In this document: positions 43,320 to 58,821 of the stretch, in pieces
Position numbering within the stretch: the first letter of the stretch is position 1
Layout of the letters: every line of letters begins with the position of its first letter
Source of the DNA: Candidatus Bathyarchaeota archaeon
GTDB lineage: Archaea; Thermoproteota; Bathyarchaeia; Bathyarchaeales; Bathycorpusculaceae
Assembly (NCBI GenBank): GCA_963772455.1
Contig: CAVYXJ010000013.1
Location: forward strand, 32,001 to 96,000
Length of the DNA: 64,000 nucleotides
Direction of reading: 5' to 3'
Translations under genes and position numbers: made by a program
Notes under the pieces: model-generated
Told to the model about the DNA's origin: nothing
What the model saw: only the letters and a program-made list of their open reading frames with translations
The model's database searches: none

Positions 43320-43479
43320 TAAATAACATGTTGTTTTTGTTTTCGTTTACTGTTGCAATAAATGCCAAAGGGTATAGCTCATTTTTTTGAGGATAACTAC
43401 TGATAGAACAACATTTAAAAAAAAGTTTGTTGTTGTTCTTTCAGTTATAGATCGTCTTTATTGGCAGTACAAGAACGAT

Positions 43480-43876
43480 CTCCACGTGGGTATCGTGGCA
43501 GTAGATGGGACAAGCAACGTAAATATGGTTCATTATTCGAACGTCAAAATCGTAATGTAAATACCAAAATAGGTAAAATTGCTCGTATTTTTCAGTTTAC
43601 CAGAATAATTTTACTCGATTTTCAACGAAAAAACGTATTAAAAAGTCTGAAAATTTAGGCAATCATACTTTTTTATATGAAGGCGAAAATACAATTCGAT
43701 AACATACTTTACTTATCGCAAAAACCCTCTTTGAAAACAACCGATCAACCCAACCTATGAACGCAACACAAAAAAACTTACTTTGTTAAAGTTAAGTTTA
43801 TCAAGCTTTTAGTTTAAAATTTAGTTTATGCTTTTTCCTAAACGTTGGGTTTGTTTTGAGAGATGGGTTTTCGATG
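43480..43876. repeat. Conserved array-distal block, copy 1 (direct repeat of 53090-53482)
   Basis: Starts cgtgggtatcgtggcag; highly similar from ~43610 (ttttactcgattttcaacgaaaaaac...) into the gene tail ISQNKPNV. Confidence 0.92.
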
Positions 43877-45013
43877 CATTCTAAAAAGCAAAAGAGAGAC
43901 CAAGATAACCGTTAAAACAACAACCACAACAATAATGAGGTAAAAAATTGTTATCCCTATGAATGCTGGAAAAACAAGTGGATGATGGTCAATGTTGTTT
44001 TGGTCAATAACGTGTGTTCCGTTACCAGAATAGTCACTCCAGTAATTACCCTCTTTTCCATTATCCCACGAAACAATATCAGTTCCGTTAACTGAGGTTG
44101 GATTTTTATTCAAATAAGTTGTCTCAACCAAGGCATTTTGACCATTACTGACAAAGTTATTGCTATAAACAACGTTTCCTAACCCAATGTATGCATCGCC
44201 AGAGACTACAAAATTCTCAAGTTTAATCCCAATAGTGTTCCCGTCAACTTCATTATTATGAAAATCTGTGTTGCTAACGCCACGCCCAAAATTGGCCCCA
44301 AAGATACTGTTGTCTATTATCTTATTATCATGGATTGAATAAGGACCAGTCCACTCGAGAACCAATCCTTCCTCATTATTCATAATTGTATTATCGTTGA
44401 CAATCACGTATCGTGAGTAAATGCTAACCCCTTGACTGTTGTGGCTGATTGTGTTTCCTGAAATCACACCTGTAGAAGCCATGCCGTTTGATGAGATTCC
44501 AATTCCTCCTTCATTATTGATAATGGTGTTGTCTTTTATCTCAAAGTTTTCACTTCTTTCAACCATAATTGCTTGGTTATTATCGGTAATGATGTTCCCT
44601 ATTATTTTGCAGTTAGAAGGAATTGCTTGTTGGGCATAATTTGCGACAGATATGGCTGTTTCACAGTTTCTTATCGTGAACCCAGAGATGGTTACATCTG
44701 GGGCTCCAACCTTAATTGTTGCACCGGCAAAAGGGTATTTTTGACCCTGAATAATAGTTTTCTGAGGAGATTCTCCTGTTAAGGAAATTGATTTGCCTAT
44801 TGTTAGCTCTCCAACCTGAAATGTTCCGCTCCTAACATAAACGGTATCTCCTGTATTGGCATTGTTTATAGCCCCTTGGATTGTTTGGTAATTATCTGGA
44901 ACAGTTATTGCTCTCGGTAGGACATAAGTCCTTAGAATTACTATTGTAAAAACGGATGCCGCTATGACAAGAGCAATAAGCAAAACAGCAGAACTCTTTC
45001 TGATAGTTCCCAT
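43838..45013 (-). CDS. Surface protein cassette: NosD/right-handed beta-helix with C-terminal TM
   Basis: ITVPDNYQTIQGAI, parallel beta-helix repeats, WDNGKEGNYWSDY, D..PL, TM, tail RKPISQNKPNV. Confidence 0.88.
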   Translation of the reverse strand: MGTIRKSSAVLLIALVIAASVFTIVILRTYVLPRAITVPDNYQTIQGAINNANTGDTVYVRSGTFQVGELTIGKSISLTGESPQKTIIQGQKYPFAGATIKVGAPDVTISGFTIRNCETAISVANYAQQAIPSNCKIIGNIITDNNQAIMVERSENFEIKDNTIINNEGGIGISSNGMASTGVISGNTISHNSQGVSIYSRYVIVNDNTIMNNEEGLVLEWTGPYSIHDNKIIDNSIFGANFGRGVSNTDFHNNEVDGNTIGIKLENFVVSGDAYIGLGNVVYSNNFVSNGQNALVETTYLNKNPTSVNGTDIVSWDNGKEGNYWSDYSGNGTHVIDQNNIDHHPLVFPAFIGITIFYLIIVVVVVLTVILVSLLLFRMHRKPISQNKPNV

Positions 45014-45037
45014 AGTTAGCTGATAGACCCGCTTTAA

Positions 45038-45137
45038 ATAAAAGACTTCTCGTACAAGACTCTTGACTAAGAGCAGTCAAACTTCCTTTACTGAACTGTG
45101 TTTGTGTTTTTTGTGGTAGACCAACAAACCAGCAGAT
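45038..45137. repeat. Cassette junction repeat J1 (promoter, two palindromes, upstream gene tail)
   Basis: ataaaagacttctcGTACAagactcTTGACtaagagcaGTCAAacttccTTTACtg...tgtgttttttgtggtagaccaacaaaccagc; near-identical to 56156-56251. Confidence 0.9.
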
Positions 45138-46210
45138 GCCACCAAGATAAAAGCAACGACTGAAACAGCGGTTATAATGACCAAGTTTCGAGAGGAGTCT
45201 AATCCTGATTTAGTTTCATAAGATGGAGCAATAAGCGGATAATGGTCTATATTTGTAGCATCAATAACATAAGCTGTATCTCCGATGCCGTCCCAGTTAG
45301 CATCTGAACCATTATAGCCTTGCCAGTAATTGCCTTCTTTGCCATTATCCCAAGAAGTATCTTGAACTGTCACATCCAAACTTACAGGGTTATTTTTACC
45401 TAAGAAGGTATTGTGAAAAAAAGTATTATTTGTAGCTAAACCAATAATTAAATTGGTACCATAACGTCCAACACTAATTTTGTTATTATCAAAAATATTG
45501 TTGCTGCTATTATAAATTTGAAGTGCACTGTTGAGTTTTCCTTCCGTGTCAATAGTATTTTCAAAGATTATATTCTGGTTAGAAGAATTCAAGTAAAAGT
45601 AAGACATTTCATTTAAACCGATTGTGTTCTGGTCAGCCAATTCCAGATTAAGGGTGTAAATATTATTTTTGAGGAGAGTATTATAAGCGCCTACTAGTTC
45701 AACGCGCCCGTTCCAAGTGTTATTAGATATATTACAGTTAGACCCACTTATTGACAACGTCTTCCCGCCTGTTATGTTATTGTCGCATATTTGGGTTCTA
45801 TCGCCTTCTACCGTGATGTCTCCGAACGGCGAGAGGATAATTGTTAAGTTTACAAGCCGCACATCATTGGCTTTAATGTTAATTGAATCCGTATGACCAT
45901 AAAAAGGGGTAGTTATAATCCATTCCACACCATATGCAGGGAACAAATTTATTACAGTCTTCTTGGCGTTTTCTCCGATAATCCAGAGGGATTTGTCAAT
46001 TATCAATGTTTGATTAATTGGTCCATCATATTCTCCCTCTTTAACAAATATCGTATCCCCATTAGTTGCATTTCCGATTGCCGATGCAATCGTTGGATAA
46101 TCGTCTGGAACAATGATAGTTTTGTTTTCAGCTTTGACTGGCAAAAATGTGATTATGGATGATGCTGTTAGGAAGACGAGAACAAGTGCTAAAGCTAAAG
46201 CTTTACTCAT
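45077..46210 (-). CDS. Surface protein cassette: NosD/beta-helix with C-terminal TM
   Basis: Signal MSKALAL...VKA, IIVPDDYPTI, WDNGKEGNYW, tail GLLVYHKKHKH. Confidence 0.88.
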   Translation of the reverse strand: MSKALALALVLVFLTASSIITFLPVKAENKTIIVPDDYPTIASAIGNATNGDTIFVKEGEYDGPINQTLIIDKSLWIIGENAKKTVINLFPAYGVEWIITTPFYGHTDSINIKANDVRLVNLTIILSPFGDITVEGDRTQICDNNITGGKTLSISGSNCNISNNTWNGRVELVGAYNTLLKNNIYTLNLELADQNTIGLNEMSYFYLNSSNQNIIFENTIDTEGKLNSALQIYNSSNNIFDNNKISVGRYGTNLIIGLATNNTFFHNTFLGKNNPVSLDVTVQDTSWDNGKEGNYWQGYNGSDANWDGIGDTAYVIDATNIDHYPLIAPSYETKSGLDSSRNLVIITAVSVVAFILVASAGLLVYHKKHKHSSVKEV

Positions 46211-46240
46211 TGCCACCACTTCATTGTTGGTTGGTTTGCA

Positions 46241-46299
46241 GATAAAAGACTTCTCGTACAAGACTCTGGACTAAAATTAGTTAAGAATTCTGGACTAAG
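46241..46299. repeat. Cassette junction repeat J2
   Basis: gataaaagacttctcGTACAagactcTGGAC + GTTAAgaattcTGGAC, 24 bp apart. Confidence 0.88.
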
Positions 46300-46398
46300 C
46301 TGAATTGCGGATATTATTAAAATAGTTTACCTTCATCGAGAACATTGCCGTTTAGTTTAATTGAGGCAATGAAACTTGAATTTATGACTTCTAACGTT

Positions 46399-47199
46399 TT
46401 ATTTCCTGTTTTTCCTTAGGGCAACCAAAAGAACAACAGCAATTGCTACAAGTCCAATCCCAATGGCACCAATATAATAGGTTGAAAAATTAGTTGTTAC
46501 TGAGAAATTTGTTACAGCTTCAGCTCTTCCCTTTTCAGTCACCACTATCATTAAGATTTCATAGTTACCCTCAGAGATTGATGTTAAAGTTGTATTTCCT
46601 GTGAGGGGATATTCATTTGATGTATCAGGTCCATAGTGTGGGTAATCTGCATTTTCATACAAATAGTAAGATGCCTTCTCCATGTTTCCATTAACAGTAA
46701 AGATTAGAGGTATCTCTCCAGTGTAGGTTTGGTTTGTTGGAGATAAAATTTTGATGCTTGTAACTTGATAGCTGGAATTTACTGTAAAGTCTCTTGATGT
46801 GTACATGCCGTTTGCGTAAGCTTCCACTGTGTGGTTACCGTCAGATAAGTTCTCGAGAATAGCTTTGCCAATTACTGTGTAGCCAACTCTTCCTGGACCA
46901 AAGTTCGAAGGGCTTTTGATTGTGAGATTTCCAATATATTGCAATGGCTCTCCATCTACACTGTAGGCTATGTTGTTAACTTTTTGTGATTCAGCGAATT
47001 GATAGACATTCACTTCAAGATTGACAGTAGAATTCTCATATCTATTTGGAGGGTAAGGGGGAGAGATAATCTTCATAGAAGGTATTGGAATTTCATCAAA
47101 AAGGGAACCTTCTGTCACTAAGAGTTGAGAGGTAGCCCCTACTAATAGCAGCATTAGCAAAATAGTAGCTACATTATAGGTCTGTCTCATGTTTACCAA
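46399..47199 (-). CDS. Surface protein cassette: tandem Ig-like domains with TM
   Basis: IISP..NxxY repeats, YSVDG, NLSDGNH, C-terminal TM + RKNRK. Confidence 0.82.
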   Translation of the reverse strand: MVNMRQTYNVATILLMLLLVGATSQLLVTEGSLFDEIPIPSMKIISPPYPPNRYENSTVNLEVNVYQFAESQKVNNIAYSVDGEPLQYIGNLTIKSPSNFGPGRVGYTVIGKAILENLSDGNHTVEAYANGMYTSRDFTVNSSYQVTSIKILSPTNQTYTGEIPLIFTVNGNMEKASYYLYENADYPHYGPDTSNEYPLTGNTTLTSISEGNYEILMIVVTEKGRAEAVTNFSVTTNFSTYYIGAIGIGLVAIAVVLLVALRKNRK

Positions 47200-47220
47200 G
47201 GTCTGCTAATAGATTTCTAC

Positions 47221-47326
47221 TTAAGAGTTTTTTCGTAAAGGTTTCTTGACTAACTCTGAAAACTGCTCGGTCAAACTTTCTTTACTAAGTTGTGTTTGTG
47301 TTTTTTGTGGTAGACCAACAAACCAG
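47221..47326. repeat. Cassette junction repeat J3
   Basis: GTAAAggtttcTTGAC (47235) + GTCAAactttcTTTAC (47270) + LLVYHKKHKH tail DNA. Confidence 0.85.
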
Positions 47327-48218
47327 CAACTACCAAGGCTACTACTGCAACAGAAATAGAGGCAAAAGGAACAATTGGGAAAGGCAGGGTTTCTTCCTCA
47401 GGGACATTGAAAACAACAACAGCGCCATGTACAGACGGTGGTTCTTCTTCTCGGGAGAAAGCAATTGTCATTCTTCCAGCTTTACCATCAATCAGAGTAT
47501 TGTTTAAGGGCGTCAATGTTCCACGGGTATCTATAGAATAAGCTTGCAACTCAAAGAGGTCGGATTCAATCTGAATGCCGTATTTGTTGGGAGAATATCC
47601 ATACCAAGAGTACAGTGGGTATGAAATATTGCTGCATCCATAGCGCCCGTATAAAGGCAGTGTAAATGAATAGTCTCCAAGGTAAGCATAAGATGTTGGG
47701 GTTTTTGAAATCGGAAGCTCATAATGAATTGCCACAACAAAGTCACGCAAAACAGGTGAAACAGTCCAATTGATTTCCTGCAAGTTGGTGTCAAAAATAT
47801 GGAAATATCCACGAGAATCTATTTGTGATTCGACTTCTTCACCGTTTAACCAAACAGAGATGTGAGTCGTGTTAAAAGGAATTGGATAGTGAGCTTCCAA
47901 CGTATCTTGTGTAACGATAACTGTAACATAAGGTGATGAATCTTTTATCAAACCCATGCCAGTATTTTCTGCGATATAGCTATCTCCTAAGGCGTAAACT
48001 GTGTGCATTTTGTATTCTGCATCAATCTTCACCCATAAGGCTTCATCAACTCGGAAGATTGTGGCGTTGATGTTAGTTTCAGGCACGTTGACCTTTGGCG
48101 GGATTCCATAAGTGGGGTATGCTTTTGCAGTATTGACCGTTTGTAGTTCTCCAAAAGTAACCATGTATAATGTCAGGAGTAAGAAAATGACAAGTAGTTT
48201 GGCTGTGTTCTTGTTCAT
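47271..48218 (-). CDS. Surface protein cassette with C-terminal TM
   Basis: Signal peptide, beta-rich body, tail GLLVYHKKHKHNLVKKV. Confidence 0.82.
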   Translation of the reverse strand: MNKNTAKLLVIFLLLTLYMVTFGELQTVNTAKAYPTYGIPPKVNVPETNINATIFRVDEALWVKIDAEYKMHTVYALGDSYIAENTGMGLIKDSSPYVTVIVTQDTLEAHYPIPFNTTHISVWLNGEEVESQIDSRGYFHIFDTNLQEINWTVSPVLRDFVVAIHYELPISKTPTSYAYLGDYSFTLPLYGRYGCSNISYPLYSWYGYSPNKYGIQIESDLFELQAYSIDTRGTLTPLNNTLIDGKAGRMTIAFSREEEPPSVHGAVVVFNVPEEETLPFPIVPFASISVAVVALVVAGLLVYHKKHKHNLVKKV

Positions 48219-48252
48219 TTCAATTCCTACCAGTATAGGGCTGTTTTAGTGA

Positions 48253-48287
48253 TTAAAGATTTTTCCAAGTAAAGAATTCTGGACAAA
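48253..48287. repeat. Cassette junction repeat J4 (single palindrome)
   Basis: GTAAAgaattcTGGAC at 48269-48284 beside the TATA of the 48218 gene. Confidence 0.7.
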
Positions 48288-48373
48288 CAAAAAGTAGTCC
48301 TTCCAGCCTCGCCGCCATTCCTATAAAGGTGTGACCGGACAAGGGACACGTTAAATTCGTGGAGGTCAACAAA

Positions 48374-49494
48374 ATGATAACACAAGTAAATACAACGATT
48401 GAATTAAAACCAGAATTAGTCAATTTAGCTTGTGAAATAGGTTTAAATCCGTCTAAAATCTGTGAAAATGCCCTTAAATCGGCAATAAGGTGCCTTCAAG
48501 GCGTAAATTTGAATAAGTGTTTGGTGGACGAGCCGGGATTTGAACCCGGGACCTCCACGATGCCAACAGGGACAGAAACAAGCTCTTTTTCAGAAAAAAA
48601 GGCTGAATTAATCGTTAAACCTGAAACCCTCGTCACATTTGCGGAATTCATGACTGTAAACATGCGCCTTGAAAAGAGAACGGTTCGGGAAACAAAATCC
48701 AATGTTCATCGGTATTTAGAAAGTTCAAAATATGTCGTAAACTATGAAACTGTCTCGAAATTCCTGAAATCATACATGACCAAATCCTCAAGGACGTATA
48801 ACGCTCAGCTAACAAGTCTTGCGAAGATTTGTTAGAGATTTCTTGCATGCACCTGAAAGCATTTTAGATTTTAAGATGGCTCCAATTGATTTGTTAGGCA
48901 AAAACATACAGCTACCAACAAAAGAACAATTGAAGAAAGGTTTTGACGCTTTAACCGAAGAAGGCGAGAAAGCATTGTATTTGTTTACTTTGTCAACAGG
49001 TCTGCGCCGAAGCGAAATCATGGGGCTGACAAAAGACAAAATAGACTTCAAAATGCAGAAGCGTTATTCCCTTGCATTTCACACGCGTTAAACGATCAGG
49101 AATTACATTTTACAACTCAGAAACCGAAGAATACCTAAACAAATACTTGTCAGCACGACCAGACGATACCAAAGTTTTTAGGCTGTGTCCAAAGAAATGC
49201 AAGTTGATGTGGCGGAAAATCAGCGAAGCAGCAGGAATTAAGATTTCACCTCAAATTCTACGAGTTTGGTTTTCAAACGAACTGGGGGAACAATTCGTTC
49301 CTGATCGATTTGTTGACATTTTCCAAGGGCGTGCACCAAGATCTGTTTTCGCGAAGAGCTACACTGCAAAAGGAATTGAACGGTTAAAAGCAATTTATGA
49401 AAAAGCTAACTTAACTATTACTTGTCAAGACGCAAATGCCTTTGTTTTTTCAATAGCTCATCCGTTAAGCTTTCGGCATGACTTTTCCTCTTGA
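48374..49494 (+). CDS. SSV-type tyrosine integrase: int(N) RHH-like domain + att + int(C); two frameshifts (~48818, ~49052)
   Basis: TGLRRSEI (Arg), RVKRSG (Lys), PQILRVWF, FQGRAPRSVFAKSYT (Tyr); reading frame runs through the tRNA-Ala 3' copy. Confidence 0.88.
48522..48567 (-). repeat. att site: copy of the 3' half of tRNA-Ala(GGC)
   Basis: tggtggacgagccgggatttgaacccgggacctccacgatgccaac matches 58500-58545 with one mismatch and ends just after the anticodon loop. Confidence 0.95.
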
Positions 49495-50025
49495 ATCCAT
49501 CAAATCACCGTCTTGAAGCCCACGTGTTTCTTCTGCTAATTTGTACGCATGTCTGAGCAAAACAAAGCTCAAAGCACGTTTGACTTCTTTTTCATCTCTG
49601 GCAAATTCATTGCCAAAATCTATTTCGTCAGCCGTAGTCAATTCTTCTTCATGTTTTCTCATATATCTTAATTCTAAATTAATGAATTTCTGAACTTCTT
49701 TAGGCAGTTCTTTAGCAAGTTCTTTGACCTTTTCTGTGATCAATTTTTCTGAAATCGTAAACAATTTGGCGTTCTCACGTTTGAGTGTAATAGACATTCT
49801 TTTTGGCGTTTACTTTGTTTTGGCAGTTTATCGATGTATATTCCATCCATTTCTTCTTTGAGATAACGGTAGAGTTGTATTCGCGTCCCATGGGCTTTTT
49901 ACATTTTTGTCGTTAACGTGTGTTGCGAAGGTCAAGAAGTTTTTTTGACCTGATATTGGAGTTCCGTCAGGCATCAAATCAAGAATCTTTTCGATGTATT
50001 TTTCAGAATGTCTTCGGTTTACCAT
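49465..50025 (-). CDS. Element hypothetical protein(s), probably one frameshifted DNA-binding protein
   Basis: ORFs 49828-50025 and 49465-49797 bridged by alternative-frame IQLYRYLKEEMDGIYIDK. Confidence 0.5.
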
Positions 50026-50126
50026 ATTTCACCATCTTTAGTTTGGATATGCGAGCAAATAACCATAATAAAAACGATGTATATAAGTCATTCTGTCAAG
50101 TCAGCAATTGACATCATGCAAAAAAC

Positions 50127-50271
50127 ATGGAGATAAAAAAATTGGTAAAAATTCCAAGAATTGAATGCCCTCAGTGCCTCTATAATTGGCGTCCCGAGGG
50201 TAGAACCTTTGCCAAAACGTTGTCCAAATTGTGGACATAGGCTATCGCAGGAAAGTGAGGTGAAACAATGA
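50127..50271 (+). CDS. Small zinc-ribbon protein (one frameshift near 50195)
   Basis: Corrected translation MEIKKLVKIPRIECPQCLYNWRPRVEPLPKRCPNCGHRLSQESEVKQ; stop overlaps next ATG. Confidence 0.65.
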
Positions 50272-50684
50272 ACGAGAAAGAAATAGCAAAAATGATTGCA
50301 GAAAGCGAAGTCTTAGAGCCTTACCTGAGAAAAATGCCGCCAATCCCACAATACCAACTCGATTCGCAACAAGCTATTGAACTCTACAGAAAAGACGTAG
50401 ACGCGATGGAAGAAAACAATTTTCGAATCGCCGTTTTCCAATGTGCCTATGACATAGCAATCTGGCTTAGTGAAGGTGGAGGTTCGTTTACGTCTTTGCA
50501 ATGCATGACTCCTGAGTCTCACAAAAAAACTTTCAGTCAAATCAACTTTGGTCAACTCGAAACAAACGCTCAAGGAATAAGACAGGAAATTAAAAGATTG
50601 AAAATGGCTAAACCATTAATTTTAAAACTAATTGATGCAAACGCTAAGGCACAATGGGATAAAACTCAGTACAATCACTGTTGA
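50268..50684 (+). CDS. Element hypothetical protein
   Basis: 138 aa, GAGGTGA RBS. Confidence 0.75.
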   Translation: MNEKEIAKMIAESEVLEPYLRKMPPIPQYQLDSQQAIELYRKDVDAMEENNFRIAVFQCAYDIAIWLSEGGGSFTSLQCMTPESHKKTFSQINFGQLETNAQGIRQEIKRLKMAKPLILKLIDANAKAQWDKTQYNHC

Positions 50685-50711
50685 AACGCCAAATCGAATC
50701 ATCCACCCGAG

Positions 50712-51158
50712 TTGAATACGATTGGATGTAAGCATGAGTTAAAAACTAAAGGTCAGGAAGCCGTTCTTGACTTGGCTATACTTCAATACGAAAAGATTCT
50801 TGAAGTCTACAATATAGAGGCATCTGACAGAAAGAAATCCCCCATCGTTAAAGACATCATCAACAACATAACTTCATTGATTAAACAGGCAGAAAAAATA
50901 CACCCAATCATAGTTAAAGCTAATCTGAAAGCACAAAAAGCTTTGGCAAATGGCATTTCGCCTGATCTTAAAACTTGTAACTCTTTTATCGATGCAACTG
51001 CCAAATTCTCTGAATTGAGCCACGAATATTTCACTCAAAAGGGCAAACTCGATTTCTACACAGACCAATCTTCAAACGATCTTGTCTTTCCAACTTTAAC
51101 CAACAACGACACATCTGCTGAATATGAGATGAAGCGACAATGGAGGAAATTTGCCTAA
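50712..51158 (+). CDS. Element hypothetical helical protein
   Basis: 148-aa ORF in operon orientation. Confidence 0.65.
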   Translation: MNTIGCKHELKTKGQEAVLDLAILQYEKILEVYNIEASDRKKSPIVKDIINNITSLIKQAEKIHPIIVKANLKAQKALANGISPDLKTCNSFIDATAKFSELSHEYFTQKGKLDFYTDQSSNDLVFPTLTNNDTSAEYEMKRQWRKFA

Positions 51159-51407
51159 ACAATCGGAAGCCGCATGCTCCACAAAAGGCTCAGACAGCTC
51201 GTTTTCCGGATGCGCGTACGTAAACGGAATTTTCCGCAAAGCAGGGCTTAATCTTTGCCCTTGATTCCCCTAACGCGCGGGGCTCCTGCTTGGAGGTTTT
51301 ATGTCATCGCTGTCGGGCTCTGCGGAAAAGCATGTGGCTTTCAAACGAAGTTGCGTTTCATCAATCCCCTTTTTCATTTTTTATTATTATTAACGGAGGT
51401 GAATTAC

Positions 51408-52064
51408 ATGAATAACAAAGTAGGAAAACTCATAAAGACAATATCAATCGATAACAAGCCAGAACTTGTTCAGCATATTGAGAAACAATCGAATTTCAGC
51501 AACTACGTTCAAACACTCTTAGAGCAAGACCTTGCAAGACTTCACGCAACACAGCAACAAAAACAGACTGAAGCGAAAATAGAGCTAACAAAAGATGAAT
51601 ACCTCACATTCGAGCATTGTAAAAAATATTTCAGAGAATATGGCGGTATGACCTATGCAAAGTACTTCCATTACTTCCCTGTGCAAATAAGCTCCGACCA
51701 TCTGAATTGTTTATTGTTAGATGTTTATGATATTTGTAAAACGTATGCTCCAACAACCGCCGAATACATTAAGCATATTAGAGAAAACGATGAAGACTTT
51801 GATATCTTCTACGATAAAATAAGTCGTTATTGGCAACAAGAAAATCCAATACCTGAAGACTGGAAGAAAGAAATCATACCTGGAATGACATTGCATGAAG
51901 CACTTTCAAAGATTATACCTGAAGCTATCAAGCTAAAAGACAAAGATATTCCATTAACAATCAAACGAATCAGCGAGATAGTGGGGTTAACCTATCAGCA
52001 AACATACACACAACTAATGCCACATATCAGACCTATTCTAAAAGAGCTACAGGTTGAAGTTTAA
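51408..52064 (+). CDS. Element regulator-like protein (N-terminal RHH-like, C-terminal HTH-like)
   Basis: GGAGGTGA RBS before ATG 51408; KTISID...NFSNYVQTLL; LTIKRISEIVGLTYQQTY. Confidence 0.65.
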   Translation: MNNKVGKLIKTISIDNKPELVQHIEKQSNFSNYVQTLLEQDLARLHATQQQKQTEAKIELTKDEYLTFEHCKKYFREYGGMTYAKYFHYFPVQISSDHLNCLLLDVYDICKTYAPTTAEYIKHIRENDEDFDIFYDKISRYWQQENPIPEDWKKEIIPGMTLHEALSKIIPEAIKLKDKDIPLTIKRISEIVGLTYQQTYTQLMPHIRPILKELQVEV

Positions 52065-52882
52065 TAATAATAAAAAAAAATAAACCCTTTCTTTTTTGTT
52101 AAACTAATCGAGGCAATCTTAACCTGATGTTTCCTTAACGTTAACATGAATAGTGAAGTCAGCGTTACCGCAGTAAACAGCGTTATAATTGCTAACAATG
52201 AAAACTCTGGAACAGTGGGAGTTGGCGTTGGATTGGGAGTGGGAGAAGCAGATGAAGTTTCACCGATGGTTATTGTTTGTGTATCGCTCCAATCGCTTGT
52301 TTCACCGATAAAAGTCCATCCGCTTGGACTTGATTCAGAGTTATAGCTAATGTAGCCTATGAATGCTTTAACTTGAAAATCAATTTGGGAGTCAGGTGGT
52401 AACGTTGGACCGAACCCATTCCATCCAGCCGATGAATAGTCTCCTTTATACGAAAAAACCGAATACTCTGTTTTTAATTGGGCATCTTCTACCGTCAACA
52501 TAGCATATTCATCATAGGGGTAATACTTCTGATGCCAGTCTTTTTCAAAATGTCCCTTCCAATGAATCTCATAGTGAAGATAAACAGTCCTGTCCCCAAT
52601 CTGTTCCTTGATTGTAAAAGGGGTGAATGGCTGATTCTTTACCGAAAGTTGAATGGTTCTTGATTCAACATGCCGTCCAGCCTCGTTTATAACCTGTCCG
52701 TTGAAAGGGTTTACCGTTGAAGAAGGTGGAATATCATAAGAGGAGTCGATAAGGGTAACATTAAACTCAGGCACAGAGGGTTTAGGTATTGACTGAGCAT
52801 ATGCAGATTCAATCATTATCAGACTTGAAACTGCTAAGACAATAACAAGAAGTAACGAGAACCCTTTGCCGATACTGCCCAT
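52061..52882 (-). CDS. Surface protein, AQSIPKPSVPEF family, PEF-CTERM-like anchor
   Basis: Signal peptide, PT-rich linker, TVPEF + TM + RKH. Confidence 0.85.
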   Translation of the reverse strand: MGSIGKGFSLLLVIVLAVSSLIMIESAYAQSIPKPSVPEFNVTLIDSSYDIPPSSTVNPFNGQVINEAGRHVESRTIQLSVKNQPFTPFTIKEQIGDRTVYLHYEIHWKGHFEKDWHQKYYPYDEYAMLTVEDAQLKTEYSVFSYKGDYSSAGWNGFGPTLPPDSQIDFQVKAFIGYISYNSESSPSGWTFIGETSDWSDTQTITIGETSSASPTPNPTPTPTVPEFSLLAIITLFTAVTLTSLFMLTLRKHQVKIASISLTKKKGFIFFYYY

Positions 52883-53089
52883 ATCAAGTACTAAGAGAAT
52901 AGAAGCGATAAAAGGTTTATTCCAAAAAACTATACTATTTCAATTCTCCTAATTTGATTCGCTTTGAGAGTTGTTGTACTTTTCGAGGTTGCTTCGTTGT
53001 TGGTATCGTAAATGTTGAGAAAGCTAAAAGCTGCAAATTCCATTAGAAATAGGTTTAAGATGGAAAAACTCCATTCTTTTGCTAATGTT

Positions 53090-53482
53090 CACCGCGTGGG
53101 TATCGTGGCAGATGAATGCTGTTTCATTGAACATGTTTGCAATTATCGAAGCTAAAATTTGAAGTAAACATTGAAACAAGGTAAAATATGCCTTAATTTT
53201 CAATTTTACAGAGAATTTTTACTCGATTTTCAACGAAAAAACATATTAAAAAGTCTGAAAATTTAGGCAATTATACTTTTTTATACATAGATGAAAATGC
53301 AATTCGATAACATACTTTACTTATCGCAAACCTTCTTTGAAAACGACCGATCAACCACCCTCTGATCGCAACACAAAAAAAACTTACTTTGTTAAAGTTA
53401 AGTTTATCAAGCTTTTCATTATAAATTTAGTTTATGCTTTTTCCTAAACGTTTGGTTTGTTTTGAGAGATGGTTTTTCGATG
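53090..53482. repeat. Conserved array-distal block, copy 2
   Basis: Direct repeat of 43480-43876. Confidence 0.92.
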
Positions 53483-54388
53483 AGTTCTGTAAAACAGAAG
53501 ATAGATAATAACTATAACTAATACGACAAATACGAATGGAACTATTAAGACAAAATTGTTGTCAGATACTTGAGAAGGCGTTGGCGTAGGGGTTTGCATC
53601 GGAGTTGGTAAAGGTTTTACTGAGGGCAAAGGCAAAAACGGTTCTGTCTTAATCAAATAAATCCTTCCTGTTCGTGGATTATCGAATAAATTATATCCAA
53701 CACCCAAAACAGCGAGTGCACCATTAGATGTTTCAATTATCGAAGAAATCTCAAGAGGAGCAGTGCCATCACCACCAGTGTAGGTCAGGTTTATTATCCA
53801 TTGAGTGTTGTTATTTGAATCAGTTTTAATAAGGCTGCCTTGTTCTCCATAAACAAACCCGCTATCACTTGTTTGAACGAGAGTTGGAGCACTGCCTAAG
53901 TCTGGTACACTTGAATAATTTTGAATCCATTGGATGTTTCCTTGAGAATCTGTTTTAATTAAAGTAGGAGTGAATTCACGTGCCCCTCCGCCAATTAAAG
54001 CGGAAAACCAGCTTCCTGATAATTCATATCCTTCATCGCTTGTTTGGATAAATGTTGTTGCTCTAAAGTAACTGATGGTTTTATTCCATTGTAAATTGCC
54101 TGATGAATCAACTTTGTATAGGGTTGATGGTCTAATAGTGTACTGGTATGACCAACCCAAATTCACGAAAACGTACCCTCCATCACTTGTTTGAATTAGG
54201 TTTGAAGTTGATTCAACATTAGTGTCGCCATAAGGACCAGAATCACCGTAATCTTTTTGCCATTGTATAGTGGGAGCAGAAGTAAATGTGGTTGATTGGG
54301 CTTTCACGGTTGCAGGTTCAAGTGTAATTAAAGAAGTTAGGAACAACGCAACAAGAACCAATGCAAAACTCTTGCTTTTCTTACCCAT
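53444..54388 (-). CDS. Surface protein cassette: beta-propeller-like repeats with TM
   Basis: QTSDGGY/LIKTDS.GN.QW repeats, tail RKTISQNKPNV. Confidence 0.85.
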   Translation of the reverse strand: MGKKSKSFALVLVALFLTSLITLEPATVKAQSTTFTSAPTIQWQKDYGDSGPYGDTNVESTSNLIQTSDGGYVFVNLGWSYQYTIRPSTLYKVDSSGNLQWNKTISYFRATTFIQTSDEGYELSGSWFSALIGGGAREFTPTLIKTDSQGNIQWIQNYSSVPDLGSAPTLVQTSDSGFVYGEQGSLIKTDSNNNTQWIINLTYTGGDGTAPLEISSIIETSNGALAVLGVGYNLFDNPRTGRIYLIKTEPFLPLPSVKPLPTPMQTPTPTPSQVSDNNFVLIVPFVFVVLVIVIIYLLFYRTHRKTISQNKPNV

Positions 54389-54410
54389 AGTAAGCTGATA
54401 GAACCATTTC

Positions 54411-54446
54411 AGATAAAAGACTTCTCGTTCAAGACTCTTGACTAAG
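54411..54446. repeat. Cassette junction repeat J5
   Basis: agataaaagacttctcGTTCAagactcTTGACtaag. Confidence 0.88.
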
Positions 54447-54510
54447 CACTATTTGCGTTTTCTGTATGTATTATTTAGGCGAAGATGTCAGAGCATTCAG
54501 TAGATAAGTA

Positions 54511-55224
54511 TTAGGAATAGAAAATAACTTTGAGATATTTTTGCTCACTTTTTTTGTTCTTCAATTGCGATATAAGTGTAACAGTAATTATTGCTGCAGC
54601 AATTAGAAAAGCAACACCTATGTATAGATACAAATTATCCTTCTCCATTTGGGCAGTATAAGTTACCAAATACTCTTTAAAGTCAAAAACTTGTACGAAT
54701 CCTCCATGTAGAAAAATTGCAGTATAGTAATTGCCTGATTCTGTAGCCCTAAAAGCTACTGCTCCATTCTTCCTTGCTACATTTGATGCCTCAAAATTAG
54801 TTCCATTTTTACTTGCCCATGCCGAGAAGTCAAAACTGTTATTGTTTAACTGAATAACAACTGATTTAAAGTTGGTAAATTGTTGCTCAGAAAAAATGAA
54901 GCCAGTTACGTAAATATCTGTGTCCCACTTAGCTTCTATGCCTTGTCCTGCGTGGAGAGATATTGGTGGTAGATTGAGAAAATCAGTATTAGGTGGCTGA
55001 AATGGAGGATAATAATAGTTCCCATTTAGGTATGTGTTATTTACTGATGCTACTGGATTTGGGTAGTTTATGTTTGGAGTATCAGTTTGATAAGAACTCC
55101 TTATTGGAGCAGTATGTGGAGAAGCAAAGTTGAGAGAGATAAAAAATGCGCCCGTTAGAAGCAATATTAAGATAACTATTTTTACTATATTTCTAAGTCT
55201 GAATCTCTCTACCTTTGGCTTCAT
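54511..55224 (-). CDS. Surface protein cassette with N- and C-terminal TMs
   Basis: Start set at MKPKVER from TATA spacing. Confidence 0.75.
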   Translation of the reverse strand: MKPKVERFRLRNIVKIVILILLLTGAFFISLNFASPHTAPIRSSYQTDTPNINYPNPVASVNNTYLNGNYYYPPFQPPNTDFLNLPPISLHAGQGIEAKWDTDIYVTGFIFSEQQFTNFKSVVIQLNNNSFDFSAWASKNGTNFEASNVARKNGAVAFRATESGNYYTAIFLHGGFVQVFDFKEYLVTYTAQMEKDNLYLYIGVAFLIAAAIITVTLISQLKNKKSEQKYLKVIFYS

Positions 55225-55250
55225 ATCCATATTCTGTAAGATGTTAGTCC

Positions 55251-55350
55251 ATAAAAGCCTTGCAGTAAACAATTCTTGACTGAGATTCGTAAAATTTCCT
55301 TTACTAAGTTAAGTTTGTGTTTTTTGTGGTAGACCAACAAACCAGCAGAT
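55251..55350. repeat. Cassette junction repeat J6
   Basis: GTAAAcaattcTTGAC (55265) + GTAAAatttccTTTAC (55289) + tail DNA. Confidence 0.85.
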
Positions 55351-56130
55351 GACACCATAATAGTTCAGTAGCAGAGGAATTGTCCATAAGGGAAACTCTG
55401 GAACTGTCGGGGTGGGTGTCGATGATGTTATGGTTGGAGTTGGTGTTAAATTTGGTGAGGGTGAGGTTGAAGTGGAAGTTGGAAGAGGTTCAGGATAAAT
55501 CAATGTTGGATATGGGGAATTATCAATACTGCTTGCAAAAACGTTTGCAGTATCACTTTGGTTAATTGTCACAGTAAGCGTATTGCTCCATCCACTATCT
55601 TGACCATTAATCACGGGATAGGGAAAAAGTGGTTGTATAACCCAGCTTTGGTAGCCAATCATAGATATTACTTGAACATCAATCACTGAACCTTTAGAAA
55701 AATCTTGGTGGATAGTGAAATAGGTAAAAACAGAACTATAGTTTCTATTTAGGAAGCCCTCGTCTTCTCCGCCATAAAGATATTGCCAATATTCACCAAA
55801 GTGTCCCTTATAGCGGACATTGTAGAAGAAGTTAAGGTCACGTCTTGTACCATTGGGGTTTGTTAGTACAAACTGGTTGAAGGGTTGATTTTTGATTTTC
55901 CCTTCAATTTTTATATCGGTAATATGTCTGCTGGGAATAGTCGTTTGTTGCCCAGTATAGGGGTCTGTTTGGATTGTTGCAGTAGTATCATATGAATTAT
56001 CAACCACTTGGATAGAAAACTGCGGAACAGATGGTTTAGGAATAGTTTGAGCATTGACGGATTCTGTCAAAAATACAGAGAAGGCTAAGATAACTACAAT
56101 TAGTACTGAGAAACCCTTGATACATTCCAT
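55309..56130 (-). CDS. Surface protein cassette, AQTIPKPSVPQF family, PEF-CTERM-like (frameshift near 55363 in the TM)
   Basis: Start MECIKGF; TVPEFPLW; SAGLLVYHKKHK lies in the adjacent frame. Confidence 0.82.
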   Translation of the reverse strand: MECIKGFSVLIVVILAFSVFLTESVNAQTIPKPSVPQFSIQVVDNSYDTTATIQTDPYTGQQTTIPSRHITDIKIEGKIKNQPFNQFVLTNPNGTRRDLNFFYNVRYKGHFGEYWQYLYGGEDEGFLNRNYSSVFTYFTIHQDFSKGSVIDVQVISMIGYQSWVIQPLFPYPVINGQDSGWSNTLTVTINQSDTANVFASSIDNSPYPTLIYPEPLPTSTSTSPSPNLTPTPTITSSTPTPTVPEFPLWTIPLLLNYYGVICWFVGLPQKTQT

Positions 56131-56947
56131 GTTTAAGGTTAGGGTTGGTTTGTAGATAAAAGACTTCTCGTACAAGACTCTTGACTAAGAGCAGTAAAAC
56201 TTTCTTGACTAAGTTGTGTTTGTGTTTTTTGTGGTAGACCAACAAACCAGCTAACACCAGCGTTATTGTTAGTAGTAGCGGAATTGTCAATGAGGAAAAC
56301 TCTGGAACGGTAGGAGTTGGCGTTGAATTAGGTGAGGGTGAAGTTGAAGTGGAAGTCTCAGGTATGGTTATTGTTTGTGTTTTACTCCAACCACTTGCTT
56401 CACCTGTAAAAACCCAAGGAGCCAAAGGTAGTTGCTGGTCTCTGAAGGAATTGCCTATCAACGCTTCAACTTGAAAATCTGCTTGACTGCCTGAAGGAAT
56501 ACTCAAAATTCTTAGACTCGAATGCAAAGACTCTGCTCCCGACAAAGCGAATGAAATGATGGTACTTTGATTTCCTGAATCTTGACTTGGATATGCATCA
56601 GGACTAAAAAGCTCCTGCCAATCGGTTGAAGAATGTTCCTTCCAGCGAACATTATAGAAAAATCCAATTCCAAAGGTATCATCAACATAAGGTTGATTCT
56701 TAATAATTATCTTTACGGCACTATATTCCATATGATATCCATTATCATTAGCTTCAAACAGTCCAGTGCTGGGATTAAGAGAGTAAGTTGGTGGTTTGTC
56801 AAAAGATGGACCTATTAACTCTAAGGTGAATTGCGGAACAGATGGTTTTGGTATTGTTTGAGCATTTACAGATTCAACCATCAGTAGACTTAGACTTGAG
56901 ATAGCCATTGTTAAAATCAGAACTATTGCTAAATTCTTGCTATTCAT
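56036..56947 (-). CDS. Surface protein cassette, AQTIPKPSVPQF family, PEF-CTERM-like; usual stop lost
   Basis: TVPEFSSL + TM + LLVYHKKHKHNLVKKV, then reads through J7. Confidence 0.82.
   Translation of the reverse strand: MNSKNLAIVLILTMAISSLSLLMVESVNAQTIPKPSVPQFTLELIGPSFDKPPTYSLNPSTGLFEANDNGYHMEYSAVKIIIKNQPYVDDTFGIGFFYNVRWKEHSSTDWQELFSPDAYPSQDSGNQSTIISFALSGAESLHSSLRILSIPSGSQADFQVEALIGNSFRDQQLPLAPWVFTGEASGWSKTQTITIPETSTSTSPSPNSTPTPTVPEFSSLTIPLLLTITLVLAGLLVYHKKHKHNLVKKVLLLLVKSLVREVFYLQTNPNLKHGMYQGFLSTNCSYLSLLCIFDRIRQCSNYS
56156..56251. repeat. Cassette junction repeat J7
   Basis: GTACAagactcTTGAC (56170) + GTAAAactttcTTGAC (56194) + tail DNA. Confidence 0.9.
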
Positions 56948-58184
56948 TGGTGGTCCTTCTATGCTTGAGGTAAACTGCAGCTAAGAGTACAGGCACAAAG
57001 AATGTTAAAATTGCCAATACTGGAAACTCTGGAACGGTAGGTGTAGCTGTTGGTGACAAGGTAGGTGTTGGTTTAGGGGTTGTTGTAGGGGTTGAGGTGG
57101 GAATCGTTGGTGCTTCAGGGTTTGGTGCAGTTAAAAAGGGTGTGAAATTGACTGTACCTAAATTGAAATCATTCTTTTTATCATGGATTGTTTGGCTTAT
57201 CATTGCTGAATTGGTTGTTCCCCACCAATTATTAGTAGCATCCACATTTTCATTAGCTTCTGGAGCTAAGTGTATGTTTTCAGAGTTTCCGTAGATATTG
57301 TTGTTATTAATGCGTGGAGTAGGGTAGGCGATTATGCCAACTGTATTGTTAACTATTGTATTCTTTAGAATAATGCTATGGCTTGCCACTATTCCTTGAT
57401 AGTTATTGATGACTATGTTTTCTTCAACCCTGCAAGAAGGACCTGATTTGATCCCAACTTTGCACCCATAGACTGTATTATTAGATAGAACATAGATGTC
57501 ATGAAAACTGTTGTAAATAATGCCTATTTCTCCACCAATAACCGTGTTGTTTGAAATCGTGGAGGCATCATCGTCTGTATAAATTCCCCAATTAATGTTA
57601 TGAACTACATTGCCTGAAATCGTTGCTGAAGACTTAAAAATTGACATCGTATCCCATTCGCCAAATATTTCATTGTTCGTAATTATAGTTGAACTATATT
57701 GACAGCTTATGTATCCTGTTATTGTGTTGTCGTTTATTTTTGGGGATGTGCCATTAATTTTTATCCAGATTGATTTTAATATGGAGTTTTCTATTATGGA
57801 GCCTAATTGTGTGTTTTTGTTCCAGCTTGGGCTTGGATTCATAAATTCGATATATGATGCTCTATTATCGCCACCGTTGAAATTTACTTTTTCAGTGTTG
57901 CTGCCTTTTGCATTTATTGTGCCATTTACTAATAGGTAATGGTTGTTAAGGTTTACAGTGGCTCCAGAATCAATTGTTAATGTTGCTCCTTGACTTATGG
58001 CTACAGGACCTGCAAGATTGTATGGGCTGTTTGCTTTGGTCCAAGTTGTATCTGAGTTTATTATCATACTGTTGATGGTAGTACCGTTTTGAGCTAATCC
58101 AAAAGGTGTAGTTCCAACAATTATTAAACTCGATACAGCCATAATTAGAACAAGGAATACTGCAAAACTCTTACTTACACCCAT
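56940..58184 (-). CDS. Surface protein cassette: right-handed beta-helix, PEF-CTERM-like
   Basis: TTWTKANSPY, beta-helix repeats, DATNNWWG, TVPEFP + TM + KHRR. Confidence 0.87.
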   Translation of the reverse strand: MGVSKSFAVFLVLIMAVSSLIIVGTTPFGLAQNGTTINSMIINSDTTWTKANSPYNLAGPVAISQGATLTIDSGATVNLNNHYLLVNGTINAKGSNTEKVNFNGGDNRASYIEFMNPSPSWNKNTQLGSIIENSILKSIWIKINGTSPKINDNTITGYISCQYSSTIITNNEIFGEWDTMSIFKSSATISGNVVHNINWGIYTDDDASTISNNTVIGGEIGIIYNSFHDIYVLSNNTVYGCKVGIKSGPSCRVEENIVINNYQGIVASHSIILKNTIVNNTVGIIAYPTPRINNNNIYGNSENIHLAPEANENVDATNNWWGTTNSAMISQTIHDKKNDFNLGTVNFTPFLTAPNPEAPTIPTSTPTTTPKPTPTLSPTATPTVPEFPVLAILTFFVPVLLAAVYLKHRRTTNE

Positions 58185-58207
58185 AGTCAACTTATAGAAC
58201 TCATTTT

Positions 58208-58266
58208 AGATAAAAGACTTCTCGTAAACGTCTATTGACTAAGCCAAGTCAAGGTTTCTTAACTAA
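58208..58266. repeat. Cassette junction repeat J8
   Basis: agataaaagacttctcGTAAAcgtctaTTGAC + GTCAAggtttcTTAAC, 24 bp apart. Confidence 0.85.
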
Positions 58267-58351
58267 CAAAAGGTAGACCTTCCACCTCGCCGCCATTCCT
58301 ATAAAGGTGCATCCGGACAACAGACACGTGTAAAACGTGGAGGTCAACAAA

Positions 58352-58633: not shown

Positions 58634-58821
58634 AGCCAAGGAAACCATCAAAAAACATTGTTGGAAAAACTTAGATGTTGTATCGACTGAAAGAAGTTAA
58701 CTCTAAGCAATGAATTTTATTATTGCTTTTTTTTAGGGCTTTTTCGACATTAATTCCGGTTCCAAAGGTTTATGCGGCGTAGCTTTTTATAAGGCAAACG
58801 CAAATAGAAAAGCCAAGCAAG

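Follow-up and report, generated by a model that had tools for sequence, protein, structure and literature searches.

The repeated palindromes found in the window, i.e. the whole 64-kb stretch of DNA analysed here, are very probably operators for a dimeric transcription factor, set within the standard promoter module of a cell-envelope regulon in this Bathyarchaeota lineage. We favour the operator reading because the sites lie at a fixed distance of 4 nt from a TATA-like box, are distributed genome- and genus-wide, come in phased pairs and stand out as footprints at orthologous promoters, and the same observations support one of the two roles proposed in the first-pass annotation, a shared operator just upstream of BRE-TATA. 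The operators are probably activator sites. As a kind of element, a palindromic operator upstream of BRE/TATA is ordinary.

All 14 sites listed in the first-pass annotation are found where it placed them, far above chance. The window contains eight exact matches to GTMAA-N6-TTKAC, compared with 0.50 expected, and none of 100 shuffles reaches eight. As a consensus, this pattern holds for only part of the list: seven of the 14 sites match exactly, whereas four (45052, 48269, 56170 and 58248) require one mismatch and three (46256, 46280 and 54427) require two. Likewise, the palindrome is real but was drawn too short; its true length is 22 bp and its centre belongs to the symmetry, with G..C adjoining the arms and AA/TT inside. 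Read on the minus strand, the window sites follow TTAGTCAAGAA/TTCTTGACTAA, and the genome-wide matrix consensus, TTAGTCAAGAATTCTTGACTAA, is symmetric across all 22 bp, an inverted repeat that suits a dimeric DNA-binding protein. When the window was scored with this 22-bp matrix, which had been retrained on genome-wide matches, the 14 sites reached 19.3–29.5 bits and the best other position only 10.8 bits; the list is therefore complete and clean. The pairing (24 bp in five pairs and 35 bp in the sixth, 47235/47270, with 48269 and 54427 as singles) and the tally of 6-bp spacers (AGACTC four times; GAATTC, GGTTTC and ACTTTC twice each) were both described correctly. All 14 sites are on the minus strand, and the eight loci, described earlier as cassette junctions, each correspond to the promoter region of a minus-strand gene. 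The predicted operator sites are the following:

45049..45070, minus strand: proximal site, 22-mer TTAGTCAAGAGTCTTGTACGAG, score 23.4; gene 43838-45013; TATA-like CTTTTAT at 45038-45044, offset 4 nt
45073..45094, minus strand: distal site, score 20.2; 24 bp upstream of 45049..45070; overlaps the last codons and TGA stop of gene 45077-46219
46253..46274, minus strand: proximal site, score 21.3; gene 45077-46219; TATA-like box 46242-46248; start codon 33 nt after the site
46277..46298, minus strand: distal site, score 27.2; 24 bp upstream of 46253..46274
47232..47253, minus strand: proximal site, score 29.5; gene 46399-47199; TATA-like CTCTTAA at 47221-47227; start codon 32 nt after the site
47267..47288, minus strand: distal site, score 21.3; 35 bp upstream of 47232..47253; overlaps the last codons and TGA stop of gene 47271-48218
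48266..48287, minus strand: single site, score 19.3; gene 47271-48218; CTTTAAT box at 48252-48258, 7 nt after the site
54424..54445, minus strand: single proximal site, score 21.3; gene 53444-54388; TATA-like box 54413-54419; start codon 35 nt after the site
55262..55283, minus strand: proximal site, score 22.1; gene 54511-55230; TATA-like box 55251-55257; start codon 31 nt after the site
55286..55307, minus strand: distal site, score 23.3; 24 bp upstream of 55262..55283
56167..56188, minus strand: proximal site, score 23.4; gene 55309-56130; TATA-like box 56156-56162; start codon 36 nt after the site
56191..56212, minus strand: distal site, score 23.0; 24 bp upstream of 56167..56188; arm GTTTTAC, not GTTTGAC
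58221..58242, minus strand: proximal site, score 19.8; gene 56940-58190; TATA-like box 58210-58216; start codon 30 nt after the site
58245..58266, minus strand: distal site, score 23.1; 24 bp upstream of 58221..58242; left edge of the repeat carrying int(N) and the att core

Several distal sites are interlocked with the end of the preceding gene. The protein encoded by 45077-46219 has the tail HKKHKHSSVKEV, its stop codon lying inside site 45073..45094, and that encoded by 47271-48218 has the tail HKKHKHNLVKKV, ending within site 47267..47288. Because site 56191..56212 has the arm GTTTTAC, ORF 56036-56947 is not terminated within the site and continues into the promoter (tail ...HKKHKHNLVKKVLLLLVKSLVREVFYLQ...). 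Site 48266..48287 is located at the left edge of a 304-bp repeat common to 58244-58545, and the two repeat copies, 48265-48567 and 58244-58545, are 88% identical. The genes downstream of the sites are:

43838..45013, minus strand: secreted NosD-like beta-helix protein anchored in the membrane by its C-terminus (Pfam NosD 2.2e-28; signal-like N-terminus; C-terminal TM segment)
45077..46219, minus strand: secreted beta-helix-like protein, anchor tail LLVYHKKHKHSSVKEV (NCBIfam NosD family 1.3e-16, under the family cut-off)
46399..47199, minus strand: secreted, C-terminally anchored protein with a weak Ig-like match (Big_7 2.2e-4, under the cut-off)
47271..48218, minus strand: secreted protein, anchor tail LLVYHKKHKHNLVKKV (no match in the family search)
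53444..54388, minus strand: secreted repeat protein with a C-terminal anchor (translation and family searches)
54511..55230, minus strand: membrane or secreted protein of no known family (translation and family search)
55309..56130, minus strand: secreted protein with a PTPTVPEF motif ahead of a C-terminal hydrophobic segment (translation)
56940..58190, minus strand: secreted protein with parallel beta-helix repeats, PTVPEF motif and anchor (para_beta_helix 8.3e-4, under the cut-off)

The last of these genes probably forms an operon with 56036-56947, as the two ORFs overlap and 56036-56947 has no site of its own. Throughout the genome, too, the module mostly precedes genes for secreted or membrane-anchored proteins. 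A hydrophobic N-terminal segment is found in 24 of 35 downstream proteins and a C-terminal TM segment in 22 of 35, compared with 17.6% and 15.2%, respectively, of 1,247 background ORFs. The target families include NosD beta-helix, Kelch, PQQ propellers, Ig-like, collagen repeat and lectin, with Acyl_transf_3, NAD epimerase and a PMT fusion as further targets.

The matrix scan of the genome (92% complete assembly), which had been suggested as a check in the first-pass annotation, bears out the motif as a genome-wide element, with 110 strand matches at or above 18 bits and none in the reversed genome. At or above 14 bits, there are 146 strand matches, corresponding to 83 unique positions, versus nine matches in the reversed genome. 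At least 55 copies are arranged as in a promoter, of which 30 fit the strict proximal arrangement and 25 are distal copies spaced at 24, 35 or 45 bp, and the sites mark ~40 promoters on 17 contigs. A TATA-like box lies within 9 nt downstream of 33 sites and at exactly 4 nt in 26 of these, against a background rate of 2.8% at 20,000 random positions; the proximal copy ends 4 nt ahead of BRE/TATA (CGAAAAnnCTTTTAT). The same type of box, GAAA..TTTAAA/TTTTAT, is found in the tRNA promoters of this genome. Start codons follow the site by ~30–45 nt in the window, and genome-wide an ORF begins 25–58 nt downstream at 31 of 39 promoter sites. Spacings between neighbours closer than 200 bp (n = 27) fall on 24 bp (15), 25 bp (2), 32–35 bp (8) and 45 bp (2). 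Several of the window promoters are near-identical to one another, and part of the local similarity therefore reflects recent duplication rather than selection.

The strict pattern occurs in 23 of 24 other sampled genomes of the genus, 11 of which hold 10–42 copies compared with 0–2 in controls. A genome from another family (G040) has 14 copies versus two in controls, and 13 of 15 other genomes of the order have none. The layout of site, TATA box and ORF recurs at 18 loci read in G040 and in the congeneric G005, 15 of which encode a hydrophobic N-terminus within 60 nt. Paired sites are conserved upstream of two small genes of regulatory type. Paired sites precede a winged-helix (wHTH) gene at 16 of 27 family loci, in 15 distinct genomes, and these loci cluster on the tree, requiring two changes, a number as low as this being seen in none of 500 shuffles. 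Ahead of a gene for a 56-aa Zn-ribbon protein, paired sites are present at -97/-73 or -92/-67 at all 15 loci, and an alignment of the 150-nt upstream regions reveals conservation of only the two sites and the BRE/TATA. Judged by these comparisons, the paired sites form a clean phylogenetic footprint ahead of both genes across species. By contrast, the PQQ-PMT fusion gene has sites at one of 19 loci, that of the present genome, and 15 of the 18 other loci, for which upstream sequence was read, have a different upstream box in common. A tRNA-Gly gene lies ~180 nt upstream of the apparently transplanted PQQ-PMT promoter, and no att-like duplicate was seen there. Regulon membership, as predicted from the sites, is thus not stable, and targets turn over between species.

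On the gene strand, the module consists of an optional distal palindrome, TTAGTCAAGAAnnCTTGACTAA, a gap and the proximal palindrome, with start-to-start distances of 24, 35 or 45 bp that correspond to steps of about one helical turn. The proximal palindrome is told apart by its 3' flank, CGA where the distal copy has TAA, and is followed by a purine-rich, BRE-like GAAAAnn, a TATA-like CTTTTAT, ~25–40 nt and the start codon. Since the proximal 16-bp core abuts the BRE, a bound factor would be expected to touch TFB/TBP and most likely to help recruit them, i.e. to activate transcription; a distal copy could accommodate a second dimer, bound cooperatively on a fixed face of the helix. Binding upstream of the BRE is typical of archaeal activators (PMC5512572 and PMC6737238, both available in part). 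Contigs from public sequencing runs match the region 43500-58700 over small shares, mainly at the conserved junction modules and the tRNA, and many have chimeric-looking joints from relatives.

In systems of the Ptr2 and TFB-RF1 type, the factor occupies a site immediately ahead of the core promoter, from where it recruits TBP or TFB. The candidate wHTH factor considered below has no seen homology to the Lrp-family Ptr2 and is built of ArsR/MarR-like winged helices. Upstream activating sites of the Ptr2 and TFB-RF1 type are named in the available part of PMC6737238, which describes Tar (TK0271) of Thermococcus kodakarensis. The Tar operator is TGGACA-N8-TGTCCA, its position is the argument given there for activation, and EMSA and in vitro transcription demonstrated that Tar binds and activates (PMC6737238, in part). 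The bathyarchaeal sites, known from sequence, differ in both sequence and half-site spacing; they precede envelope-protein genes, whereas Tar governs aromatic amino-acid synthesis, and they occur in paired, phased copies, which are not described for Tar in the available part of that paper. In Methanococcus maripaludis, activity of the fla promoter requires its EarA sites, which control a cell-surface structure but comprise four 6-bp boxes at one operon (PMC5512572, available in part), compared with the 22-bp palindromes found here in one or two copies at each of ~40 promoters.

That the sites are instead repressor operators, a dimer on the proximal palindrome covering the start of the BRE and blocking TFB and the distal copy strengthening the block, is rather unlikely. 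The proximal 22-mer shares its CGA flank with the BRE-like stretch, whose first bases it overlaps, and occlusion could therefore bring about repression, but the 16-bp core ends before the BRE, the TATA box stays free and distal copies lie even further upstream. Conserved sites before regulator-type genes fit auto-repression and auto-activation equally; in the available parts of PMC5512572 and PMC6737238, it is activators rather than repressors that bind upstream of the BRE. We consider it very improbable that the motif is functionless, the conserved part of a promoter-plus-anchor module spread by tandem duplication and gene conversion among paralogous surface-protein genes. Such copying would account for the turnover of targets between species and for the blocks of 33–134 nt, 77–97% identical, that the window junctions share and that include coding parts for signal peptides and anchor tails. 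However, most of the ~40 promoters are alike only in the palindromes and BRE/TATA and differ in the sequence between and around them, and copying alone leaves unexplained the symmetry, the 24/35/45 phasing and the conservation over the genus and into another family. An RNA element, in which transcripts of the upstream gene would end in a hairpin formed by the palindrome and serving as a terminator or stability element, is scarcely credible: although the palindrome could fold as a stem of 6–9 bp and distal copies in tandem arrays overlap the stop codon or follow it directly, the proximal copy keeps a constant distance to the downstream gene's TATA box rather than to the upstream stop. Sites also stand ahead of first genes with no upstream neighbour in the same orientation, among them the wHTH and Zn-ribbon genes.

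The other role proposed earlier, cassette recombination sites possibly used by the host XerA, is extremely unlikely. In such a scheme the palindromes would be Xer/dif- or pdif-like crossover sites of a tyrosine recombinase, at which surface-protein cassettes are exchanged, excised or inserted. The likeness to Xer/dif is that of an imperfect inverted repeat around a short centre; the arms do flank a central 6 bp, the region holds an integrase and an integrated element, and the promoter module has been transferred to a gene whose orthologues rely on a different one. Archaeal dif has 11-bp arms, a 6-bp spacer and one sequence found per genome (PMC2958812, available in part). The conserved arms here span 8–9 bp (TTAGTCAAG) with 4 bp at the centre, or, in the form given by the first-pass annotation, 5 bp with 6 bp between them, and the centre is conserved next to the arms as part of the palindrome. 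Instead of a single copy per chromosome, there are 83 positions at or above 14 bits, and at least 55 copies on 17 contigs keep a fixed distance from TATA. Pair members lie 24 bp apart on one side of a gene and do not flank cassettes as boundaries of the pdif or integron type would, and sites are conserved ahead of single-copy genes outside arrays. Two homology blocks begin inside the spacer of site 55265, but spacers hold only four of 80 block ends, and 13 of 20 blocks span whole sites, in the comparison of breakpoints with spacers that the first-pass annotation proposed. The best match to the XerA model NF040815 in the 92%-complete assembly scores 27.3 bits against a cut-off of 220, and none exceeds it. 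Moreover, the att of the element itself is a 46-bp tRNA-Ala core different from the motif; a third copy of this core was not found to the left in the window. The recombination reading thus fails on the dozens of TATA-tied copies, the homology blocks running through sites and the lack of a XerA above the cut-off.

If the sites are operators, the leading, although doubtful, candidate for the regulator is the product of the wHTH gene (G000:C10:75489-76424), whose own promoter carries the conserved pair of sites. This 312-aa protein combines a Cys4 motif at its N-terminus with three winged-helix domains. A whole-protein fold search with its model gave no matches at E ≤0.001; only single winged-helix domains resemble MarR/ArsR proteins, and the sequence has weak ArsR/HlyU-type matches among solved structures. 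Profile searches with E up to 10 detected no homologue of the family in G005 (92% complete) or G040 (a single contig, 97% complete) despite their many good sites, and judged by these searches the candidate fails a phyletic test. Of the 24 other genomes of the genus, only 10 yielded the 56-aa protein, and it was not found in G040. A search for an autoregulated regulator in G040, G003 and G016 gave nothing regulator-like among the 10 of 20 further loci that passed a site-plus-TATA filter; nine of these 10 downstream ORFs encode signal-bearing proteins. A long ORF in G040 with an N-terminal ArsR-like stretch was considered as a site target and rejected, as the geometry of the pair fits the neighbouring secreted-protein gene. 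That pair is situated between the secreted-protein gene and the ArsR-like ORF, which beyond the ArsR-like stretch looks, by eye, like a ribonucleotide-reductase type enzyme.

Bathyarchaeota are abundant and uncultured, and in full-text literature outside the subscription journals we found nothing on the motif or on Bathyarchaeota transcription-factor regulons. More speculatively, the paired palindrome with BRE/TATA might serve a lineage-specific surface-proteome regulon as a portable 'plug-in' promoter. The distal operator in arrays would double as the final five codons and the TGA stop for the cytoplasmic tail encoded by the preceding gene (LVKKV-stop), so that the same ~120-bp junction would end one surface protein and switch on the next, and sharing this junction would let arrays grow via homologous exchange. 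Integrative elements with an SSV-type integrase would carry such arrays and in this way wire their cargo into the host regulon; the module would also have been transplanted onto the conserved PQQ-PMT gene in this species, and regulation would fall to a new Cys4 plus triple winged-helix family controlling its own gene. A genus-conserved cis-element at ~40 promoters would define the envelope proteins that the cell regulates together, and would give DAP-seq or EMSA experiments on a few recombinant candidates a direct starting point. It would also show how mobile elements and gene arrays plug into host control.

All fourteen palindromes which the first-pass annotation had placed at eight cassette junctions of the window under the consensus GTMAA-N6-TTKAC were recovered at their exact positions, arranged in five pairs with 24-bp spacing, one pair with 35-bp spacing and two singles, and its counts of the 6-bp spacer sequences are also correct. 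Four of the sites deviate from the consensus by one mismatch and three by two. Chance occurrence is a poor explanation, since the exact pattern is present eight times in the window versus 0.50 expected, a number reached in none of 100 dinucleotide shuffles; seven of these eight matches lie within 45076–58239. When scored with a 22-bp matrix, seeded with the 14 sites and retrained in three rounds on genome-wide matches, the sites reach 19.3–29.5 bits, and the best other position in the 64-kb window reaches 10.8. All 14 are on the minus strand, where they read TTAGTCAAGAAnnCTTGACTAA, a 22-bp palindrome whose symmetry includes the centre, and eight minus-strand genes have them upstream. The proximal copy, nearest to the TATA box, has the 3' flank CGA instead of TAA, followed by a purine-rich stretch and a CTTTTAT box, and the start codons of the window genes are located 30–47 nt past it. 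Because GAAA..TTTAAA/TTTTAT boxes are found ~35–40 nt upstream of tRNA genes in the same genome, CGAAAAnnCTTTTAT corresponds to the ordinary BRE/TATA type of the organism. The array gene 52061–52882 has a similar TATA box without a site.

The distal copy, located further upstream, frequently extends over the end of the gene before it. Across the genome, five genes have a tail ...LVK(K/E/A)(V/F) that terminates at a TGA within the arm GTTTGAC. It is unusual for an operator to coincide in this way with tail codons and a stop codon. One distal site differs in this arm:

56191–56212, minus strand, distal site with the arm GTTTTAC instead of GTTTGAC

Here ORF 56036–56947 (minus strand) has lost the in-site TGA stop and reads through both operator sites and the TATA box into the frame of the next gene. 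The listed TTG start of gene 55309–56175 (minus strand) falls within the promoter; its real start is likely the ATG of MECIKGF.

The motif is spread over the whole genome of the window (G000; 2.45 Mb, 24 contigs, 92% complete; the window is G000:C13:32001-96000). A genome-wide matrix scan, as proposed in the first-pass annotation, yielded 146 strand matches of at least 14 bits versus 9 in the reversed genome, and 110 versus 0 at 18 bits or more; the 146 matches represent 83 unique positions on 17 contigs. The strict pattern with the TAA flank occurs 30 times, the reversed pattern twice. A TATA-like box follows within 9 nt at 33 sites, the distance being exactly 4 nt in 26 cases, compared with 2.8% of 20,000 random positions. 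Under strict rules, 30 of the 83 positions are proximal, another 25 are distal partners of proximal sites and 28 belong to neither class; by eye, about nine of the latter can be classed as proximal with a weaker box, and ten are low-scoring matches inside long ORFs. The 25 distal sites are spaced from their proximal partners by 24 bp (15 sites), 25 bp (two), 32–35 bp (six) or 45 bp (two). The 24/35/45-bp steps are about one helical turn apart, a phasing that fits two dimers which would be held on a fixed relative face. An ORF starts 25–58 nt past 31 of 39 promoter sites and 96–206 nt past six others; two have no ORF. Two sets of three near-identical copies (G000 C1:6763, C20:84279 and C4:20609; G000 C3:2208, C18:4703 and C19:41382) display identical low-to-middle matrix scores. 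One set lies within a 1020-aa ORF, the other where a ~163-aa ORF ends in a lysine-rich tail; distributed over different contigs, both sets resemble repeated elements or collapsed repeats.

Of the 24 sampled genomes of the genus, 23 contain the strict pattern, eleven of them with 10–42 copies versus 0–2 in controls. Among 16 genomes from eleven other families of the order, G040 has 14 copies versus 2, two genomes have 1–2 and 13 have none. In G040 and the genus member G005, the 18 loci read display the same site–box–ORF layout, and a signal-like ORF begins within 60 nt in 15 of them. The gene for a 56-aa Zn-ribbon protein, found in 10 of 24 other genus genomes, is preceded by two sites at −97/−73 or −92/−67 in all 15 loci, and in the alignment of their 150-nt upstream regions conservation is confined to the two palindromes and BRE/TATA. 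The family of a 312-aa winged-helix (wHTH) protein has two or three paralogues per genome; in G000, G000:C7:401967-402890 is a paralogue of the 312-aa protein. Out of 27 scanned loci, 16 (15 distinct genomes) have a site pair upstream; nine lack sites, and the remaining two have a single weak one at −625. On the maximum-likelihood tree of 25 family members, paired sites require two changes (none of 500 shuffles gave as few), and a nine-member clade without sites includes the second family copy in G000. For a gene encoding a fusion of a PQQ propeller with a PMT glycosyltransferase, sites were found in only one of 19 loci, that of G000, and a different conserved upstream box, GTTTAATATAT, is common to the 15 of the 18 other loci whose upstream region was read. 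The set of targets is thus subject to turnover, with the module able to take the place of another promoter; the G000 gene is a case of such replacement. In this locus (L092, G000:C12:101728-107139; 1162–1238 and 1418–1463), the regulon promoter lies ~180 nt past tRNA-Gly.

According to a simple rule, a hydrophobic N-terminal segment is present in 24 of 35 downstream proteins (background 17.6% of 1,247 ORFs of 200 aa or more), and a C-terminal membrane segment in 22 of 35 (background 15.2%). Targets include NosD-type beta-helices, Kelch and PQQ propellers, Ig-like domains, a collagen-repeat protein and a lectin-like domain, as well as envelope-related enzymes (Acyl_transf_3, NAD-dependent epimerase, type I phosphodiesterase and the PQQ-PMT fusion). 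Two are small and of regulatory type, namely, the wHTH protein and the 56-aa CxxC...HxxxC protein. Genes 43838–45013 and 53444–54388 share their 3' end with ~270 nt of downstream DNA (88%; 43571–43899 and 53179–53505) and their promoter with the first codons (83%; 44988–45071 and 54363–54446), and their central parts are unlike; conserved ends surround a variable ectodomain.

The first-pass annotation had offered two readings, a shared operator upstream of BRE-TATA or Xer/dif-type cassette recombination sites, possibly for host XerA. Recombination is highly improbable. In a self-comparison of 43000–58700, 13 of 20 homology blocks span at least one whole site, and only 4 of 80 block ends fall in a 6-bp spacer, all from two blocks with site 55265, the promoter-side half of which is unlike the other sites. 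The blocks reach into the coding parts for signal peptides and anchor tails; conservation at the junction thus covers promoter and gene ends, and variation falls in the ectodomain. According to PMC2958812, dif has 11-bp arms and was found once per genome, whereas the motif here has dozens of copies. The best match to the XerA family in the 92%-complete assembly reaches 27 bits versus a cut-off of 220. An integrase is present locally, but its site is another one, a 46-bp core common to 48522–48567 and the tRNA-Ala 3' part at 58500–58545:

48265–48567 and 58244–58545, direct repeat of 304 bp with 88% identity, framing a ~10-kb segment
58500–58577, minus strand, tRNA-Ala, 3' part identical to the 46-bp core

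Both repeat copies contain the core, an operator site and a TATAAAGG box, and in both an SSV-type integrase ORF (MEVNKMITQV...) is represented by its N-terminal part. The left copy runs on into the integrase C-terminal ORF 49072–49494, with weak Phage_integr_3 and XerA-like matches, and the right copy leads into tRNA-Ala. This arrangement fits the integration, in tandem or in succession, of two related elements that each carried an array of surface-protein genes. The left-end integrase is split over ORFs 48359–48835 and 49072–49494 (plus strand; 158 and 140 aa, ~240 nt between) and may be broken.

The operator reading, by contrast, agrees with the fixed TATA distance, the genome- and genus-wide spread, the phased pairs and the footprints. 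In a coherent set of genes that extends across the lineage, the palindromic element has a fixed place by the core promoter, is often doubled in helical phase and leaves a conserved footprint. A dimeric factor would bind the palindrome. As the palindrome core is immediately upstream of BRE and does not cover the TATA box, this factor most likely aids TFB/TBP recruitment; according to PMC5512572 and PMC6737238, archaeal activators bind upstream of BRE. Activation is accordingly the predicted sign of regulation, with somewhat better than even probability, and repression by BRE occlusion is rather unlikely. The module may work like the Tar operator (TGGACA-N8-TGTCCA, upstream of BRE/TATA) and the EarA boxes of the fla promoter, although neither has sequence in common with the palindrome, and no new principle is involved. 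A full-text literature search, covering few subscription journals, found nothing on the motif or on Bathyarchaeota regulons.

Because its self-promoter is conserved, the wHTH protein (G000:C10:75489-76424) is the best candidate regulator, albeit a tentative one. Its structure is predicted with good confidence (mean pLDDT 85.6): the N-terminal part is helical and has four invariant cysteines, and after it come three winged-helix units, which singly resemble ArsR/MarR proteins; a whole-fold search gave no match. A profile search (E up to 10) detected no homologue in G005 and G040 despite their many strong sites, the 56-aa protein was not found in motif-rich G008, G013, G020 and G040, and no regulator gene was seen at ten further promoter loci in G040, G003 and G016. 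In a separate G040 locus (L090, G040:C1:176700-179200), the N-terminal ~95 residues of ORF 370–2499 looked by eye like an ArsR-type winged helix, and the rest like an ATP-cone and a body of glycyl-radical ribonucleotide-reductase type, an unusual-looking combination. Overall, the sites provide a ready-made regulon with testable candidates in an uncultured phylum.
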